A stretch of DNA of 32,000 bases from assembly GCA_002421785.1 (NCBI GenBank), contig DIRZ01000002.1, positions 270,001 through 302,000 of the forward strand, in the 5' to 3' direction. The DNA is from Candidatus Saccharimonadota bacterium (GTDB taxonomy: Bacteria > Patescibacteriota > Saccharimonadia > Saccharimonadales > Saccharimonadaceae). The position numbers and the translations under genes were made by a program. The notes below the pieces were generated by a model, which was not told where the DNA came from, did not search any database, and saw nothing but the letters and a program-made list of their open reading frames with translations. Shown one piece after another: positions 9,606 through 15,918 of the stretch (the first letter of the stretch is position 1; each line of letters begins with the position of its first letter).

Positions 9606-9619
9606 GATTATCGTTATGT

Positions 9620-10480
9620 ATGGTGGTGGCGTTTAACGGGCTTCAGTAGCGGGCGATTCAGTCTAGTTTGCAAGCAGATGTCGACAATGCTAAGAAAAAA
9701 GTGATGCTGTATCAGGCCGAAAAAGGCACCTACCCAACGGCGATTAATTGTACAAATCCGAGTGATACTGAAATTTGCGTGGAGCCGTCAGGGTCGAATA
9801 CGTATACATATAGTGCGACGAACGCGACCAACCCGCCGCGCTTCGGTTTGACAGCGAGCAGCGGCACCACGACCTACCAGGCTACGCAGCGCACTTCGGC
9901 CGAGCAGCTGGCAGGCGTGGTAACCGATGGCTTGTCATTACATCTTGATGCGTCCAATAGCGCTTCCTATTCGGGCACGGGTACGCTATGGAGCGATATT
10001 TCTGGTACTGGCCGCAATGCGACGCTGACAAATGTTTCATACGGTAACGAACACGGCGGCGTGCTCGTATTTAACGGCACAAGTTCGTATGCACGAGTTG
10101 CGAGTGGCGCAACGCAGTCCGTGTTTATGATGGTCTACATTGACCCGAGCCAAGTCACTTCACGTTACCTGCTGGACTCGCGTACGGGTAATTCCGCGGG
10201 GTATATCTACAACAACGGCGTGGGCAACTGGCTAAACTTTTATGCGGATGCCCAGCCTGTTGCTACGAACTGGGCGAGCATACCTAAGGGTAGGTGGGTA
10301 GGCTTTTATACCAACACAACCCTGCAGTATACCTCGACTGTTAATGTCATGAGCCGCTACAGTAATGGCGAATTGCTGATGGGCAAGCTGGGCGTCGTGC
10401 TGGTGTATAACCGAGCTCTGTCACAGGCGGAAATTTTGCAGAACTTCAACGCGTTCAGTGTTCGCTACGGAGTGCTCTAG
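9620..10480 (+). pseudogene. 5'-truncated type IV pilin-like / LamG (laminin-G_3) domain gene with an in-frame TAG
   Basis: Reads MVVAFNGLQ-TAG(9647-9649)-RAIQSSLQADVDNAKKKVMLYQAEKGTYP, then a LamG-like body (LHLDASN...GTGRNATL...LVYNRALSQAEILQNF). The prepilin leader and first half of helix alpha1 are absent. Confidence 0.65.
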
Positions 10481-10491
10481 TATAGGAAAAA

Positions 10492-10512
10492 CCCCGCCCT
10501 GGATGGGCGGGG
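10492..10512 (-). terminator. GC-rich hairpin; intrinsic terminator when read on the minus strand
   Basis: CCCCGCCC-tggat-GGGCGGGG with an A5 run on the plus-strand 5' side, which is a U-tract after the stem on the minus strand. Confidence 0.55.
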
Positions 10513-10542
10513 TAAAGAGCGTGACTGCTAGGAAAAATGTGT

Positions 10543-10574
10543 CGAGTGGTGGGGGACTGGGCCCCCACCACTCG
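10543..10574 (-). terminator. intrinsic terminator of the high-GC operon
   Basis: 13-bp stem CGAGTGGTGGGGG/CCCCCACCACTCG just past the stop at 10580, followed on the minus strand by ACACATTTTT. Confidence 0.65.
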
Positions 10575-10579
10575 CTGTA

Positions 10580-11533
10580 CTACTTGGCGGGCTGCACCAC
10601 TCCGCCGCCGGCCACGATGGGCGCCGGCCACGGGTTGACACCCTTGTCGATGCCGTACTTCTTCAGCCAGGCTTCGGAGCCGATGACATCGACCTCGGCC
10701 TGGGTCGCTCGAGCCTTGGCCTCGGCGACTGCGACATCGGCGAGTGCTGCGCGCTCCTCAGCCTTCGCTGCGATCTCCTTCGCCTTTGCCTCTTCGGCGA
10801 CAGCGTTGGCGTTCGCAACGGACGACTGCTCTCGGCTGATCGCAGCCTTGAGCTCGGGATCGACCGGTTCCGGCTTCAACACCAAGGTGGTGTTGACCGT
10901 GAAGTAGTGGCCGCCCATGCGGTCATCGATCATCTTCTGGAGTTCGGTCTCGACTGCCTGGTCGAGCTTTACCTTGACCTCTGCGTTGTTCCAGAGGTCG
11001 CGCCAGTTGTACTGCTGGGCCGTGCGGTCCAGCGTGGCGTCCAGCGACTTTCCGACGTACATGTTGAGGACCTTGATCCACCCGTCGGGCGTCTTGTCGC
11101 GGTTCTTGTCGTCGATGTCGTCGTTGAAGTCTCCGCCCGACCAGAACGCGCGGTCACGGAGCCCCATGTTCTCGTGGAACTTGCGCAGGGCGGTGCAGTC
11201 GGTCACCATGTTGAAGGTGATCGCGACCGGCACGTCCATCTCGGCGTTGTCCTTGGAGAGAACGCGAATGGGGCCCGTCTCGGCGCCTTCCGTGAGGCTG
11301 GCGTCGTAGGTCCGGTTGTTGGTCGGGTAGGTGTAGAACAGGTTGCCCGGGTTGTCGACCTTGCGGGTCGACACGGGGATGCACTCCTTGAACGTCGTGG
11401 ACGAGAAGGCGCCGGCGTCGTAGTGCACGGCCACCATGTCCGGGGGGGTGCTCACCATGGAGCATCCGGTGGTGGTCAGGCCGACACCGACTGCAGCGGC
11501 TGCGAGGACGATGTTGCGGATGGTCTTGTTCAT
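10580..11533 (-). CDS. SPFH/band-7 (prohibitin-like) domain lipoprotein, high-GC codon usage
   Basis: Start moved to MNKTIRN (GGAAGGA RBS). Signal peptide plus lipobox LTTTGC. SPFH-like core and an Ala/Glu/Lys-rich coiled-coil tail. Strong G/C preference at third codon positions. Confidence 0.85.
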   Translation of the reverse strand: MNKTIRNIVLAAAAVGVGLTTTGCSMVSTPPDMVAVHYDAGAFSSTTFKECIPVSTRKVDNPGNLFYTYPTNNRTYDASLTEGAETGPIRVLSKDNAEMDVPVAITFNMVTDCTALRKFHENMGLRDRAFWSGGDFNDDIDDKNRDKTPDGWIKVLNMYVGKSLDATLDRTAQQYNWRDLWNNAEVKVKLDQAVETELQKMIDDRMGGHYFTVNTTLVLKPEPVDPELKAAISREQSSVANANAVAEEAKAKEIAAKAEERAALADVAVAEAKARATQAEVDVIGSEAWLKKYGIDKGVNPWPAPIVAGGGVVQPAK

Positions 11534-11537
11534 TTGA

Positions 11538-11855
11538 TCAGTTTCCTTCCATGCGGTGGTACTGCTTGAGGGCTTGTTCGAGGGGGTTGTAGTACTCGCC
11601 CGGAAGCGAGCTCTGGACGACCGGATCCTCCAGTGCTCGGTCGAGCACTTCGGCGGTTTTCTCCATCCACTCCCACCTTTCGATGAGAATAGTGCGGACG
11701 GCAGGGTCGACTTCGGTGTAGGCAAGTTGCTTGGGGTCGCGTCTGGCAATCTCGGCAATCTTCTTGCTCTGAATGCTCTTTGAGATGAGCACGAATGCTC
11801 CCACGATGATGACGACGACCACGAGGACTGCCACTATGGCAAGTACTCGAGTCAT
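11538..11855 (-). CDS. small single-pass membrane protein (105 aa), co-transcribed with the SPFH gene
   Basis: Start at MTRVLAIVAVLVVVV, 4 nt after AAGGAG. A 4-nt gap separates it from the next gene. GC3-rich. Confidence 0.7.
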   Translation of the reverse strand: MTRVLAIVAVLVVVVIIVGAFVLISKSIQSKKIAEIARRDPKQLAYTEVDPAVRTILIERWEWMEKTAEVLDRALEDPVVQSSLPGEYYNPLEQALKQYHRMEGN

Positions 11856-11863
11856 TTGGCTCC

Positions 11864-11913
11864 TTTCGGTCGCTGTACGGTCATATGAGTATATGAACAT
11901 ACAGCGACCGAAA
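11864..11913. repeat. 14-bp perfect inverted repeat with 22-nt spacer in the operon leader
   Basis: TTTCGGTCGCTGTA (11864-11877) and TACAGCGACCGAAA (11900-11913). Confidence 0.8.
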
Positions 11914-12022
11914 TACACGAGCAGCTCCTGACGGAATTTTAACTGAATAAATTATTCCTAGCTTGTCAATGTGCTCCGCGTGGAGTCGGTGAATTATGAC
12001 CCTGACACACGGTAACTTGCAT

Positions 12023-12051
12023 ATATTAGCATAAAAAAGTATTAATGTCAA
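12023..12051 (-). promoter_or_regulatory. sigma70 promoter for the high-GC operon
   Basis: Minus strand reads TTGACA (12051-12046), 17 nt, TAATAT (12028-12023), with TGc upstream of the -10. Confidence 0.6.
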
Positions 12052-12109
12052 TACTCTGATTAAATAATTTTTAGTATTTGCCTTTGCACTCTGAGCGACA
12101 GTATATTTA

Positions 12110-12370
12110 TTATTTCTTGCGAGGCGTATGCTGCGCCCGAGTAAACACTATGGCGACAACGATAAAGAGCGCTGACAGTCCGCCCCACAGGAGGAGTGGT
12201 GGAATATAGCGGGATGGTTCGCAGGCGACCATACTGTTGCCGGTACTGTTGCAATCTGGTGAAGATGCTTGATAAAGCATTATCGCCATCAGTGACGTAT
12301 AGAGCAGTGATACGACCAGCATGAGAGTGAGGGTAATGACAATAAGATCATGGAGTATGCGCTGCTTCAT
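12110..12370 (-). CDS. small membrane protein, 86 aa
   Basis: Two hydrophobic helices. Starts 4 nt after the stop of the upstream EEP gene. Confidence 0.55.
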   Translation of the reverse strand: MKQRILHDLIVITLTLMLVVSLLYTSLMAIMLYQASSPDCNSTGNSMVACEPSRYIPPLLLWGGLSALFIVVAIVFTRAQHTPRKK

Positions 12371-12374
12371 ACTG

Positions 12375-13127
12375 CTATTCTAGCACGCGTACATGATGAA
12401 GTGGTGGTGCGTGGCGGAGCGTGAGCATGAGCGGCAGATGGTCAGACACCGGCACGTCGTCCACAGAAAAGTCGTAGTTGAACAGGTTGTTTAGTCTGGT
12501 GAAGGCGTAGTCCGCATAGAGCTGCTTGTTGTCAGGGTAGCGTTGCCAGGCGTGTTGGTTGCGCGTGGTCGCGATGGCATAGTCGCTAATGAGATCGCGG
12601 TAGCCAGCGGCGGTAAACAGCTTCACGGAGTGGGCCTCGGGTAGCAGGTTAAAATCGCCCATAAACACCGTGGGAATATCGTCATGTGCCGCATAACGCA
12701 GCAGTCCTTTTGACTGGGCGATACGTTCGGGTGTGTCGAGCTTGTGACCAGGCTGCGGTTGACCGTGAACATTCACGACTCGCAACCTGTGTTTGGGCGA
12801 TACTTGCAATTCGCACACGAGGCCTACGCCCGCGTGGGGGATGTCGCACAGGAGTTCGGCGGTGCCTGTAACAGTAACATCTTCGCGTACGTAAGTGGTG
12901 GCGTAAAACTCATCAGCCTCACCGACAATGCTCCTGCACATGGAATAGCGCGTAAAGCCTGGCTTTAGTAGTGCATCAAGCATAGCCAGTGTAGGGGTGT
13001 CGGTTTCTTGGAAGCAAAATACCGACACGGTGGCTTTGTGCTGGGCGATGTAGGCTCGCAGCTCTTGCTGCAGCTCGCCGTACCAGGTGTTTAGGGACAG
13101 AATGACGATTTTGTTTGTGTTCTTCAT
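12375..13127 (-). CDS. endonuclease/exonuclease/phosphatase (EEP) family protein
   Basis: Motifs LNTW, CFQE, VNVHG, GDFNL and SDHLPL. Confidence 0.85.
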   Translation of the reverse strand: MKNTNKIVILSLNTWYGELQQELRAYIAQHKATVSVFCFQETDTPTLAMLDALLKPGFTRYSMCRSIVGEADEFYATTYVREDVTVTGTAELLCDIPHAGVGLVCELQVSPKHRLRVVNVHGQPQPGHKLDTPERIAQSKGLLRYAAHDDIPTVFMGDFNLLPEAHSVKLFTAAGYRDLISDYAIATTRNQHAWQRYPDNKQLYADYAFTRLNNLFNYDFSVDDVPVSDHLPLMLTLRHAPPLHHVRVLE

Positions 13128-13209
13128 GCTTCATCTACTGTAACGTAAAATATCACCACGAGCTAACCACTACGCACTAAACCTAGAAAAAAGGCTGAAT
13201 GAATTAGCT

Positions 13210-13791
13210 CTAGTGCCATACGGTGACGGCGCAACCAGTCGTGTTCTGGCTTGCCATGTACTGGGTTACTATGCCCGACCCCATGTTTGTGCATGTTTGA
13301 TTGCCAGGCAGAAGATAAACAATTGAATACCATGTTGGATCTAGGTTTGAAAAAGCGATACCGCGTTGACTTAGGTTTCCACCACCCCACCATAACGTTT
13401 TTGGTTGCAGCGGAACGTTACTTCGCAAGGTTGAGCCGTATCGGCTGATCCTTGAATTTAGTTCGTTGTCTGCACTTCCGAACAAGGTTAAATCTGTAGC
13501 ATTTTTTCTACATTGACCCGCAGCAAACCCATCGGCAGCCGGGTAGTCTTCCAGTGTGCCGAGACAAATTGCCGCATAGGAATACGCCACGACTGGGTAG
13601 CGACCGAACTCTGAATAATGCATCTCGAGTGCTTTCATGTATGTTTTAACAACAGATTCGGTCCGCACCTTTTCGGCGCGACCCTGGATGCCACCATAAG
13701 AAACAACGGTTATTGAGGCGAGTATTGCGACAAGTACGATGATAATAAGTAGCTCTATGATTGTGAAGCCATGCCGTCCATTCCTGGTCAT
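13210..13791 (-). CDS. type IV pilin-like protein (prepilin N-terminal cleavage/methylation domain)
   Basis: MTRNGRHG|FTIIELLIIIVLVAILASITVVSYGG. Confidence 0.9.
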   Translation of the reverse strand: MTRNGRHGFTIIELLIIIVLVAILASITVVSYGGIQGRAEKVRTESVVKTYMKALEMHYSEFGRYPVVAYSYAAICLGTLEDYPAADGFAAGQCRKNATDLTLFGSADNELNSRISRYGSTLRSNVPLQPKTLWWGGGNLSQRGIAFSNLDPTWYSIVYLLPGNQTCTNMGSGIVTQYMASQNTTGCAVTVWH

Positions 13792-14250
13792 GACACTATA
13801 TTAACATAATCGGTGTTGTAGATTGCTGTTATCGGGAAGGGGCGTAGATGTTGGTATTGCCGTTGATCTGGTTGTCGATAAGATTCTAAATAGCCCCGAC
13901 GAAGCAGTGCTGCAAGTGCTCATTAGTTCTGACGCAGATTTAATTCCTACGATAGAGACAGTACGGGGTACTGACGGGGGAGGCCGTGCATATTGGGTGT
14001 AGCAATAAGCTCACAAAATCAATTGTGACCGAAGCGGATAAAACACAAACTATTCGTGGCTCCGGAGTGCTTGCCGCATGTTACGCGATATACCCCCCCA
14101 AAAAAGCCCAACGGTTAACTCGGCCATTTGTAGGTATACCCTAAACTGACACAGGCTTACCTGTGGCGGGATTATACATCGCGAGTACTTGCCGCTGCGA
14201 CTGAGCATTGATTGCTTTTGCATGTACGAACGCTTTGTGGTGGAGGGGAG

Positions 14251-14709
14251 CTATAGCCGCTTCGACAGCATGCCATCGCCTGAGTCGCCATCTGGCTGGT
14301 AGCCGTGGGCTTCGTAGAACCGTCCGGCATCGTCACTCACGGGGTTGAGCGTAATGCGCTCGGCGTTGTTGTTGCGGGCAAGGGCTTCTATGAGCCGAAG
14401 TGTACCAGCGCCAAGGCGTTGACCACGGCGCTGTTCATCTATTACCAATGTATCGATATGGACATCGTCGTCAGGAGTTTCTAGCGTAACGATGCCGACG
14501 ACAGGGTCGGTGCCCTCAGGGGCATCGGTATCCGTGACGCTATAGGCGTGTTTAGTGCGAGCATCCTGGAGTATCATGCGGGCGAGCTGAGGAGTTAGCT
14601 CGCTATCGTGGAGCTGTGCGCCAATTTCGAGAAAGCGCTGCTGGGCAGGCGTGAGTTCTTTAACCGATTTGGTGTTTCTGAAATTTTCGGGCTTGAGTTT
14701 GAGCGGCAT
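14251..14709 (-). CDS. GNAT family N-acetyltransferase
   Basis: Acetyl-CoA motif A-like segment: VIDEQRRGQRLGAGTLRLIEALA. Confidence 0.85.
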   Translation of the reverse strand: MPLKLKPENFRNTKSVKELTPAQQRFLEIGAQLHDSELTPQLARMILQDARTKHAYSVTDTDAPEGTDPVVGIVTLETPDDDVHIDTLVIDEQRRGQRLGAGTLRLIEALARNNNAERITLNPVSDDAGRFYEAHGYQPDGDSGDGMLSKRL

Positions 14710-14741
14710 GTTTTTTTGTTTTTCGTTTATGCACTAGAGGT

Positions 14742-14770
14742 ATATTAGCATAAAAGATATAAAAAGTCAA
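14742..14770 (-). promoter_or_regulatory. sigma70 promoter for the GNAT gene
   Basis: Minus strand reads TTGACT (14770-14765), 17 nt, TAATAT (14747-14742). It shares the 15-mer TTTTATGCTAATATA with the 12023-12051 promoter. Confidence 0.6.
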
Positions 14771-14839
14771 TCAACTGCTCAAAATTCCCTGAGCCTCCAC
14801 CCCTAGACGCACCCGATAGAATACGGGTATAGTGACAGT

Positions 14840-15754
14840 ATGAAGATTGCACTATGTGGCTCGATGGAATTTGCCGATGGAATGAACGAAACAGCTGACA
14901 CGCTGGAAACGATGGGGTACGAAACCTACCGCCCGGCACCAGCAGATGAAGGGCGGATTGCGCGCGACCCTGCCATAAAGGGGCGGGTGATGCGCGAGTA
15001 CTTTGAGTTTATTGATCAGAGTGATGCGGTGCTGCTGTACAACGTCGCCAAGAAGGGGATTGCTGGATATATTGGCGGCAATACGCTCGTGGAGGCGTCG
15101 CACGCGTTCAGTAAAGGCGTGGAGATATTTGCTCTTCATCCACTACCTAATATGTCGTATACAGATGAGCTTGCTGCGATGAACCCGCGAGTACTAAACG
15201 GCGATGTTGCTGGTATCGACGATTATTTCGATTCGCTGCCCCGAATGCACGTGAGTAGTAAAAGTCCTGTGAAGTTGCAAGCGCTTGGCGCGGCAATGCG
15301 CCGTGCGGGCCGGCCTGTGGTGCCGGTGGGCTACAAAACCCAGAGTGGCGTCAACGAGCAACCAATGACGATTGAAGAAACATTGCAGGGCGCTACCAAC
15401 CGGCACGCTCACCTGCACACGTTCGTAGAAGCGGGAGTGGGGGATTACTTTGCCACCATTGAGAGCGGTAACCAGGCGTTCACTGCGGCGCTTGGCTTCC
15501 GCGGCCTCTCGGTGACGATTATCGAGCAAGCGGGTGGTGCTCTAAGGCACGGGCTGGATGTCGATATTGAGTTTCCGGCTGATTTTGCCGCGCTCGTGCC
15601 GTCGCAGTATCGGGACTATGGTGTGCTGATGCAGCAAAAGTTTGGCAGTACGCTGAAAGACCCGTACCCATACCTGTCCGGTGGTAAGCTGACGCGCGCC
15701 GAACTGCTCGAAGAAGCTGCGTACCGTGTGGCGACGCAACTACCTGTGCGATAA
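14840..15754 (+). CDS. fusion protein: nucleoside 2-deoxyribosyltransferase-like domain + YjjX/DUF84-type inosine/xanthosine triphosphatase
   Basis: N-terminal half resembles the NDT-like Rossmann fold (KIALCGSM...AVLLYN...GYIGGNTLVE). C-terminal half has SGVNEQP...EETLQGATNR...GKLTRA, as in YjjX. Confidence 0.7.
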   Translation: MKIALCGSMEFADGMNETADTLETMGYETYRPAPADEGRIARDPAIKGRVMREYFEFIDQSDAVLLYNVAKKGIAGYIGGNTLVEASHAFSKGVEIFALHPLPNMSYTDELAAMNPRVLNGDVAGIDDYFDSLPRMHVSSKSPVKLQALGAAMRRAGRPVVPVGYKTQSGVNEQPMTIEETLQGATNRHAHLHTFVEAGVGDYFATIESGNQAFTAALGFRGLSVTIIEQAGGALRHGLDVDIEFPADFAALVPSQYRDYGVLMQQKFGSTLKDPYPYLSGGKLTRAELLEEAAYRVATQLPVR

Positions 15755-15837
15755 TACTTGATTTATTGGAGGCGTATCGCCATAATGAAAACAATTACAA
15801 AACGACAGGCACATGATGTGCGCTAGTTATCGACTCA

Positions 15838-15853
15838 CCACTACATGCAGCGT
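15838..15853 (+). promoter_or_regulatory. NrdR-box-like element (distal, weaker) upstream of pyrG
   Basis: CCACTACATGCAGCGT is a near-copy of the proximal box and starts 33 nt upstream of it. Confidence 0.35.
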
Positions 15854-15870
15854 AGAATAAACAACAAGGC

Positions 15871-15886
15871 ACACTACATATAGCGT
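15871..15886 (+). promoter_or_regulatory. NrdR-box-like element (proximal) upstream of pyrG
   Basis: ACACTACATATAGCGT. The left half equals nrdA box 2 and the right half equals nrdA box 1. It overlaps the expected -35 of the pyrG -10 (15905-15910). Confidence 0.5.
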
Positions 15887-15918
15887 ACATAGTGATTTGC
15901 GTGTTACAATGAAATCCC

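Follow-up and report, generated by a model that had tools for sequence, protein, structure and literature searches.

A horizontally mobile two-gene operon encoding an actinophage-type SPFH lipoprotein in a Saccharibacteria genome

Organization and composition of the operon

The sequence analyzed here, referred to as the window, is a stretch of 32,000 nucleotides (nt) from contig DIRZ01000002.1 of the Candidatus Saccharimonadota assembly GCA_002421785.1. Positions 10,481–12,051 of the window are occupied by a minus-strand operon consisting of a promoter, a leader, a gene encoding a small membrane protein (the partner gene), a gene encoding a lipoprotein with an SPFH/Band-7 domain, and two terminators. 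This cassette forms a self-contained, two-gene unit that is horizontally mobile and resides in a Saccharibacteria genome. The affiliation of the genome, which an earlier reading of the letters (the original prediction) had raised as a possibility, is supported by NrdB and DnaG, both of which fall into 90% clusters with proteins of 'Candidatus Saccharimonas sp.' and 'Candidatus Saccharibacteria bacterium'. The partner gene (11538..11855) encodes a single-pass membrane protein of 105 amino acids (aa) and is preceded by a strong ribosome-binding site (Shine-Dalgarno sequence AAGGAG, 11860–11865). The SPFH gene (10580..11533), encoding 317 aa, starts 4 nt past the stop codon of the partner gene, and both genes are probably carried on one mRNA and translationally coupled. 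The two GC-rich, terminator-like hairpins expected at the end of the cassette were recovered by a scan, each followed by a T-run: the first has 13 pairs, 10 of them G-C (hairpin 10574..10543, whole element 10533..10574), and the second has 9 pairs, 8 of them G-C (hairpin 10513..10491, whole element 10481..10513).

A sequence scan also recovered the putative sigma-70-like promoter that had been read by eye, TTGACA-17-TAATAT with an extended −10 TG, at 12051..12023. The 15-mer TTTTATGCTAATATA occurs exactly twice in the window, at 12022–12036 and 14741–14755, both on the minus strand, against an expectation of 0.01, confirming the sharing with the GNAT promoter that had been described earlier. 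An alignment of both regions shows two similar promoters, each with a TTGAC-type −35 box, in which the 15-mer makes up the spacer and the extended −10; the second site is promoter-like and located upstream of the GNAT gene. The cassette therefore appears to be driven by a promoter of the resident type. The shared arrangement, TTGAC-N-TTTTATGCTAATATA with the extended −10 TGCTAATAT, looks like a strong-promoter consensus of this genome.

Between promoter and partner gene lies an AT-rich 5′ leader of approximately 160 nt (11856..12016) that holds the box ACAAGCTAGGAA (11955–11966) and a long stem-loop with 23-nt arms (11864..11913), the 3′ arm of which extends into the Shine-Dalgarno sequence. 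The leader has a folding energy of −62.3 kcal/mol (z = −6.7 relative to shuffled sequences). Among the 75 loci compared (handles beginning with L), the box was found solely upstream of the partner gene, in the window, L001 (GCA_035904485.1), L056–59, L067, L068, and L069, and the combination of box and hairpin was kept in the window, L001, L067/L068, and L069 and nowhere else. The lower stem, retained in three diverged lineages, carries two compensatory pair changes, C-G to U-A in L067 and G-C to A-U in L069, although a comparison of three independent sequences is too small for a firm claim of RNA structure. The equivalent regions lie at about 1438–1531 in L067 and about 2199–2278 in L069. Box and stem-loop could represent a cis-regulatory RNA or a palindromic operator. 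The leader had no Rfam match at the gathering score, leader and terminators giving sub-threshold chance matches alone, and a scan of viral contigs for the leader motif found none.

The abrupt rise in G+C and the G/C-ending codons that first drew attention to the cassette were borne out within the window, and the five hand counts underlying that observation (40, 36, 31, 25, and 30 per 60 nt) were exact on recount. The GC content of 500-nt intervals is 0.59–0.646 over 10,251–11,750, compared with 0.512 for the whole window. At third codon positions (GC3), it reaches 0.887 in the SPFH gene and 0.708 in the partner gene, 7.0 and 3.3 standard deviations (sd) above the 30 other open reading frames (ORFs) of the window (mean 0.550, sd 0.048, maximum 0.649). 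As the values at first and second positions are ordinary (0.60 and 0.43), the excess is confined to synonymous sites. Positions 10,501–12,000 are also the most atypical 1.5-kb stretch in the 32 kb by tetranucleotide distance (0.038 versus 0.0193 ± 0.0017, approximately 11 sd) and the window extreme by the GC-normalized dinucleotide measure delta* (144 versus 55 ± 17, approximately 5 sd). All four additional stop-free ORFs previously listed for the cassette region are present. The sole RNA gene detected in the window is a tRNA-Ser(GGA) at 120–211.

The SPFH lipoprotein, its partner, and their relatives

The SPFH protein matches the Pfam family Band_7 (PF01145) at residues 30–252 with 32.3 bits (gathering cutoff 23.6, E 1.3e-7) and, far better, the phage family phrog_200 ('lipoprotein') at residues 2–314 (E 2e-30). 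Its N-terminus, MNKTIRNIVLAAAAVGVGLTTTG-C24, shows on visual inspection the three parts of a lipoprotein signal peptide, namely a basic n-region, a hydrophobic core, and then the lipobox. All 11 aligned homologs share Cys24, mostly within a canonical L-[AS]-[GA]-C. Residues C51 and C113, which would suit an exported protein, are nearly invariant in the homologs, and the C-terminal motif AWLKKYGIDKGxNPWP is conserved. In an AlphaFold2 (AF2) model with a pLDDT of 78.7, a beta-rich N-terminal part is followed by an SPFH core of alpha/beta type and one long helix (226–284, coiled coil). When this model was used as a Foldseek query, HflK/C, stomatin, prohibitin, flotillin, QmcA, and major vault protein were matched with a probability of 1.0 over approximately 300 columns, with E values of 1e-9 to 1e-6 for the first five; the cage-forming SPFH targets included 7vhq, 9z7u, 8rrh, 9l3g, and 8z5g. 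A profile search of PDB chains by sequence matched no solved SPFH chain, and the link to these structures runs through fold comparison only. The lipobox, SPFH/band-7 core, and coiled-coil tail originally assigned to the larger product were thus confirmed by Pfam, the alignment, and AF2/Foldseek. Taken together, the signal peptide and lipobox suggest that the protein is exported, lipidated at Cys24, and displayed on the outer face of the cytoplasmic membrane, and the full-length structural match of the monomer model suggests that it forms a closed multimeric ring or cage. The ratio of nonsynonymous to synonymous divergence (dN/dS) of the SPFH gene between the window and L001 is 0.09, indicating purifying selection.

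Only ten relatives of the SPFH protein were found in 5.8 billion protein clusters. The closest are encoded on low-GC contigs and are 98% (L001), 53%, and 49% identical, and the next, with 45%, 42%, 38%, 35%, and 33% identity, are encoded in phage- or prophage-type arrays of small genes on contigs of 57–68% GC; the arrays of P0004, P0005, P0008, and P0009 include DnaN, YqaJ exonuclease, two WhiB genes, integrase, ERF, and DnaB. A tblastn search of a phage collection (50,697 genomes) gave 118 matches, all of them in actinophages (115 of Mycobacterium, 2 of Rhodococcus, and 1 of Corynebacterium). These matches, among them Faith1, MiniMac, and Firecracker, are annotated as 'band-7-like membrane protein' or 'lipoprotein', and members of the family lie in early or replication modules of phages. 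The single match in a plasmid search was in Rhodococcus. All 35 matches among 185,579 species, each represented by one genome and scanned with a 6-sequence alignment (an 11-sequence alignment had no usable conserved stretch), belong to Actinomycetota, to which the known hosts of Saccharibacteria also belong; they include Kineosporia, Streptosporangium, Planomonospora, Planobispora, Thermocatellispora, and Mycobacteriales. Metagenome and IMG/VR scans added five loci and one locus, respectively, none above 51% identity. Outside a small low-GC clade, every relative found was from Actinomycetota or an actinophage.

In neighbor-joining trees, the low-GC copies group together as a single clade. Its bootstrap support is 84% in the initial tree and 64% once further taxa are included, and the inner group containing the window copy reaches 94%. 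Upon midpoint rooting, the clade is nested among high-GC phage, prophage, and actinobacterial sequences. This nesting, together with matches confined to actinophages and Actinomycetota, favors transfer in the direction of Saccharibacteria. A horizontal origin in the gene pool of Actinobacteria and their phages is thus well supported, the SPFH family being otherwise restricted to high-GC Actinomycetota and their phages; the originally proposed actinobacterial origin does not stand in its simple form, as the nearest relatives outside the clade are 41–45% identical and located in phage or prophage arrays. Judging from these gene contexts, the family is phage or prophage cargo and not a host housekeeping scaffold. 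The flanks of the window cassette are cellular (nrdAB, pyrG, argS, pilin-like genes, EEP, GNAT), and no integrase or phage module is present within the 32 kb, which argues that the window SPFH gene is a cellular descendant of the actinophage family and not a phage gene.

Two further observations concern the gene contexts of this family. A phage-like contig of low GC content (0.48; L071, JGI Ga0066648_10002089) encodes an SPFH lipoprotein that is 45% identical to that of the window, has an ordinary GC3 (0.53) and its own upstream TM (transmembrane) partner of 78 aa, and falls outside the Saccharibacteria-type clade in the tree. In cluster L mycobacteriophages (L047–L050) and the L010 prophage, the band-7-like gene follows a metallophosphoesterase gene by a few genes and precedes that of a Ro-like RNA-binding protein; an EEP-family phosphoesterase/nuclease gene is found near the cassette in two Saccharibacteria contexts, but it is not homologous to the phage metallophosphoesterase and the resemblance may be a coincidence.

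In the partner protein, an N-terminal TM helix is followed by approximately 75 aa of helical tail; the protein is all-helical in its AF2 model and has a conserved tail motif, ARxDP...DPVVQSxLPSEYYxPLE. It has no significant Pfam, NCBIfam, or PHROG family (the sole Pfam match, HemY_N, scores 17.7 bits, below the 31-bit cutoff), and a word-index search returned its own 90% cluster only. An exhaustive phmmer search of 1.84 billion representative proteins revealed a small family of 103–107 aa with 64%, 32%, and about 30% identity to the window protein. Two members were inspected for gene context, P0117 (64%) and P0118 (32%), and in both cases the gene that follows immediately is an SPFH gene from this same clade. 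As no actinobacterial or phage homolog of the partner was detectable by BLASTP, profile, and phmmer searches, the earlier supposition that this gene was likewise of actinobacterial origin could not be upheld. The layout itself is widespread: a small protein with an N-terminal TM helix adjoins the SPFH gene in Baudelaire (gp56), Firecracker (gp86), PSonyx (gp95), L009, L010, L011, L012, and L071, with the small gene located downstream instead of upstream in Kineosporia and L009. The upstream partners Baudelaire gp56 and Firecracker gp86 and those of two metagenomic contigs are mutually homologous. BLASTP of the partner against small neighbors in 24 loci was negative across families, and a common origin of the Saccharibacteria partner, the actinophage upstream partners, and the L003/L005 pair found no support, with profile-profile probabilities of 4–9%. 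Pairing with a small bitopic membrane protein thus appears to be a recurrent theme in which the partner itself is not conserved, and that of the window is not traceable to an actinobacterial donor.

Exchange of the cassette between Saccharibacteria genomes

Relatives with an NrdB at least 90% identical to that of the window have a backbone in common with it, ABC transporter-nrdA-nrdB ... pyrG-argS-...-dnaG-sigma factor, the DNA of which is 66–80% identical. The interval between nrdB and pyrG contains no genes in L066, two unrelated genes in L061–65, and eight genes (6.3 kb) in the window, where the island spans 9,606–15,900 and includes the cassette. Related genomes (L061–L066) therefore lack the cassette at this position, the interval is a variable hotspot, and the cassette is foreign to the conserved backbone. 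Also part of the L001 island are an MmeI-like restriction-modification gene of type IIG and a gene for an Nramp transporter. Beside the cassette, a 270-aa ORF (9606–10480) is a 5′-truncated remnant of a type IV pilin-like protein; the L001 version has 337 aa and the N-terminal pilin motif, FTIVELLIVI..., in the part that is missing from the window. The remnant has an in-frame TAG at approximately 9647–9649, and it shows matches to two phage families, phrog_24074 and phrog_8510, in its C-terminal part. Similarity to L001 starts approximately 20–30 nt past the nrdB stop codon, which is probably the left junction of the island.

The most recent step in the history of the cassette is visible in the comparison with L001. 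The two cassettes are 97% identical at the nucleotide level, and a block of 95–100% identity (approximately 10,530–12,040) includes the non-coding AT-rich leader and the promoter, which sits at its edge. The flanks are mostly 57–87% identical, the exception being a short segment of 0.88–0.97 at approximately 9,883–10,182, within the pilin-like ORF. At third codon positions, identity amounts to 0.94 and 0.91 in the cassette genes and to 0.54–0.68 in four flanking genes, and synonymous divergence (dS) is 0.09 and 0.13 for the cassette genes compared with 0.62 for one flanking gene. Since the non-coding part is equally identical, codon bias does not explain the high identity of the cassette; low dS and identical non-coding parts instead indicate that cassette and promoter were exchanged together, well after the divergence of the two genomes. 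The block 10,530–12,040 appears to be the most recently exchanged unit, and the immediate source of the cassette was probably another Saccharibacterium. The original prediction of a recent, direct transfer of a membrane-microdomain scaffold from host to symbiont does not accord with these results, as the last step took place between Saccharibacteria, the nearest relatives outside that group are 41–45% identical, and the window copy is a member of the low-GC clade, which has a partner gene of its own and a conserved AT-rich leader. No direct repeats, integrase, or transposase were found in the flanks of the cassette, and the sole flanking inverted repeat, of 21 nt with 76% complementarity, was judged to be due to chance. 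Saccharibacteria are naturally competent (PMC10633639), and competence offers a simple route for the exchange.

Copies of the low-GC cassette were found in five genomic contexts. In the window and L001 the cassette adjoins an EEP-family gene, and in L003 it adjoins another EEP gene in a different order. The L005 copy is located between a pilin gene and GmrSD_C, the L067 copy between valS and a histidine-phosphatase gene, and the L069 copy next to cas1-cas2. L005 is from Saccharibacteria, as its NusA shares 92% identity with a named protein of that group and 83% with Nanosynbacter proteins. Identity to the window is discordant between the two cassette genes, with 64% for the partner and 54% for the SPFH protein of L067 and 32% and 67%, respectively, for L069, a pattern that suggests recombination within the cassette.

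The same set of copies shows that composition is weaker evidence for transfer than originally assumed. All low-GC-clade SPFH copies tested (window, L001, L003, L005, L067, and L069) have C-rich third positions (C 0.42–0.61), and their GC3 is 0.17–0.34 above that of their own flanks, even though four-fold degenerate sites between the deeper lineages are saturated, with an identity of 0.29–0.49 against a chance level of approximately 0.37, itself a rough estimate from the third-position base composition of these genes. As the clade shares the AT-rich leader and its synonymous sites are saturated, a simple import that has not yet ameliorated is no explanation for the C-rich third positions, and the argument for transfer is carried by phyletic, syntenic, and dS evidence and not by composition. 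The persistent GC3 possibly results from codon or mRNA selection, from GC-biased gene conversion in an often-recombining cassette, or from repeated re-import from unsampled donors. The third-position changes between the window and L001 were too few to be polarized as a measure of amelioration, and a suitable outgroup was lacking.

Proposed role, alternatives, and significance

We consider it probable that these observations reflect a mobile operon of actinophage descent with a cage-type mechanism. An SPFH lipoprotein family of actinobacteriophages and Actinomycetota prophages would have been acquired by a low-GC lineage, in which the gene came under a sigma-70 promoter of native type, with a conserved leader, and was joined with a small single-pass membrane protein. 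The cassette would now be moving among Saccharibacteria genomes, most simply by natural transformation and recombination, and in the present genome it would have settled in the variable nrdB-pyrG island. The genes would be co-transcribed, and the SPFH protein exported, lipidated at Cys24, and kept on the outer face of the cytoplasmic membrane, where SPFH domains and coiled-coil helix would close into a ring or cage, as in HflK/C, stomatin, prohibitin, and flotillin, fencing a membrane patch that contains the TM helix of the partner.

The closest known counterparts are the actinophage band-7-like lipoproteins of phrog_200, for example Faith1 gp52, MiniMac gp50, LeBron gp49, Firecracker gp85, and PSonyx gp94 (a Corynebacterium phage). 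These proteins of about 275–320 aa are 27–35% identical to the window protein over up to 92% of the length; have the N-terminal lipobox Cys, the SPFH core, the Ala/Glu/Lys coiled coil, and the conserved C-terminal motif; and are often encoded next to a small membrane protein with an N-terminal TM helix. They differ in that the phage genes lie inside an early operon, whereas the window copy is in a cellular genome with its own sigma-70-type promoter, leader hairpin, and double terminators, and in that the window partner shows no sequence relationship with the partner family of the phages (hhalign probability 4–5%). Horizontal acquisition by Saccharibacteria is documented for the arginine deiminase system (PMC8764695), likewise an accessory gene set gained by a reduced-genome, naturally competent episymbiont (PMC8764695, PMC10633639), but the cargo here is a phage-type membrane scaffold, and its onward passage from one Saccharibacteria lineage to another is directly evidenced. 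In the literature library that was searched, no paper linking SPFH proteins with Saccharibacteria was found.

As to what the cassette does, an envelope-level phage barrier resembling superinfection exclusion is the role we favor, tentatively and short of an even chance, as one inherited from its phage ancestry; general membrane organization or stress protection is the fallback. The preference follows from membership in a phage-cargo family, from the existence of exclusion lipoproteins, and from neighboring restriction and CRISPR genes, which lie within a few kb of the cassette in three of the five low-GC contexts (type IIG in L001, GmrSD_C in L005, and Cas1/Cas2 in L069). The lipoproteins Ltp of Streptococcus phage TP-J34 and Llp of phage T5 are exclusion factors that are phage-derived, exported, and lipid-anchored at the outer face of the membrane (PMC3952083, PMC9586334), as is predicted for the window protein. 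This likeness is the functional analogy behind the favored role and is functional only: both are small, neither is an SPFH protein, and no relation in sequence or fold is expected.

Several points weigh against the proposed operon history and role. The C-rich third positions that outlast synonymous saturation are not explained by a simple recent import, and no donor was identified, the closest SPFH homolog outside the clade being 45% identical. The tree was built by neighbor-joining and rooted at its midpoint without an outgroup, and the whole low-GC clade has a support of 64% after taxa were added. Saccharibacteria status is confirmed for the window genome and L005, with L003, L067, and L069 assigned by GC content, gene content, and cassette similarity. 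Oligomerization, lipidation, and topology of the SPFH protein are what we infer, and the positive-inside rule would place the partner tail in the cytoplasm, opposite the SPFH domain, leaving contact only through the membrane. With respect to an antiviral role, a PADLOC-DB v2 search (E ≤ 0.1) with the SPFH protein, its partner, and two neighbors gave no match, and the defense neighborhood in such small genomes may merely reflect a common variable region. LeBron gp49 is listed without a known function and is mildly cytotoxic upon overexpression (PMC13148394).

Among the alternatives, a generic flotillin- or stomatin-like microdomain or stress scaffold, without any phage role and kept for the membrane stability of the epibiont, is possible, if on the unlikely side. 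Such a scaffold would account for the SPFH fold, the coiled coil, and the purifying selection, and the layout of SPFH gene plus small partner recalls SPFH-NfeD pairs such as Escherichia coli QmcA-YbbJ (8z5g), which is likewise a two-gene operon of SPFH and small membrane protein genes and whose QmcA is a structural match. The window partner, however, is not NfeD; it has no OB-fold or Pfam family and is all-helical in its AF2 model, and gene order and partner family vary across the clade. The patchy, mobile distribution and the phage-restricted relatives also fit an accessory, conflict-related function better. We regard as rather doubtful, in all its parts, a scenario of envelope defense in which the lipoprotein cage and bitopic partner block phage genome entry or phage-induced membrane damage, the SPFH gene having been captured from host viruses, furnished with a regulatory leader RNA, and traded by transformation, with its GC-rich codons selectively kept.

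It is unlikely, in our view, that the protein is an HflK/C analog, an extracytoplasmic cage around FtsH that would protect phage proteins in phages and tune membrane-protein quality control in Saccharibacteria. The idea draws on the structural search, in which HflK/C and FtsH-HflK/C complexes (7vhq, 7wi3, 9cz2) were the top matches over the full-length SPFH region and long coiled-coil helix, and on topology, the SPFH domains of HflK/C being periplasmic and that of the window protein predicted to be extracytoplasmic. HflK/C also influences the lysis-lysogeny decision of lambda through FtsH. Nevertheless, stomatin, prohibitin, and flotillin score equally well, and identity to E. coli HflK/HflC is 11–14%, with no sequence-level match to solved SPFH chains. 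The cassette encodes one SPFH paralog and not a K/C hetero-pair, a lipid anchor is predicted in place of the N-terminal TM helix, and linkage to ftsH was not seen in any locus.

The remaining alternatives concern origin. A recent, direct transfer of a chromosomal microdomain scaffold gene pair from an actinobacterial host to its episymbiont has little to recommend it over the exchange described above. Its appeal lies in the high GC3, in outside homologs that all belong to Actinomycetota or their phages, and in the habit of Saccharibacteria of living on Actinobacteria and taking up DNA (PMC10633639). Yet the best match beyond Saccharibacteria is 45% identical and phage-borne, the homologs in actinobacterial genomes lie in prophage-like regions where inspected, the partner has no actinobacterial homolog, the AT-rich promoter and leader are common to other low-GC copies, and a 97% identical copy exists in another Saccharibacterium.

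A native, vertically inherited Saccharibacteria pair whose high GC3 stems from codon selection for high expression is very improbable. It would be in keeping with the strong consensus promoter, strong Shine-Dalgarno sequence, and double terminator, with the dN/dS of 0.09, and with the C-rich third positions found in all low-GC-clade copies tested despite saturated synonymous divergence. It is at odds with the absence of the pair at the nrdB-pyrG locus of related genomes, its presence in only about 7 low-GC lineages in 5.8 billion clusters and the metagenome scan, its five different contexts, and its nesting within actinophage diversity. A cassette dS approximately 7-fold below that of the flanks with an equally conserved non-coding leader, and a dinucleotide signature that is an outlier besides the GC content, are likewise contrary to it. 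Despite the abrupt change in composition, an assembly chimera or contamination by actinobacterial or phage DNA is of negligible probability, since the same arrangement with the same junctions is found on nine contigs (NCBI, JGI, and Logan records), one of 812,921 bp, an AT-rich native-type promoter lies inside the unit, and a second genome has the orthologous arrangement.

The cassette is best described as a cellular, self-contained, and mobile derivative of an uncharacterized actinophage family of SPFH lipoproteins. That family gains from it a cellular setting for functional tests, in a group of organisms that is now genetically tractable, and the SPFH repertoire gains a predicted lipid-anchored, extracytoplasmic variant with a non-NfeD partner. 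The consensus TTGAC-N-TTTTATGCTAATATA may also aid the annotation of Saccharibacteria transcription units. Because Saccharibacteria have tiny genomes and depend on actinobacterial hosts, each accessory gene that is kept or exchanged is informative about their lifestyle. The present case suggests a route of gene flow from an actinophage or prophage family into an epibiont lineage, where promoter and leader were rewired, followed by spread between epibiont lineages that was rapid enough for the cassette to be approximately 7-fold younger than the surrounding genome. If the exclusion role proves true, the operon would represent a new class of membrane-level antiviral module.

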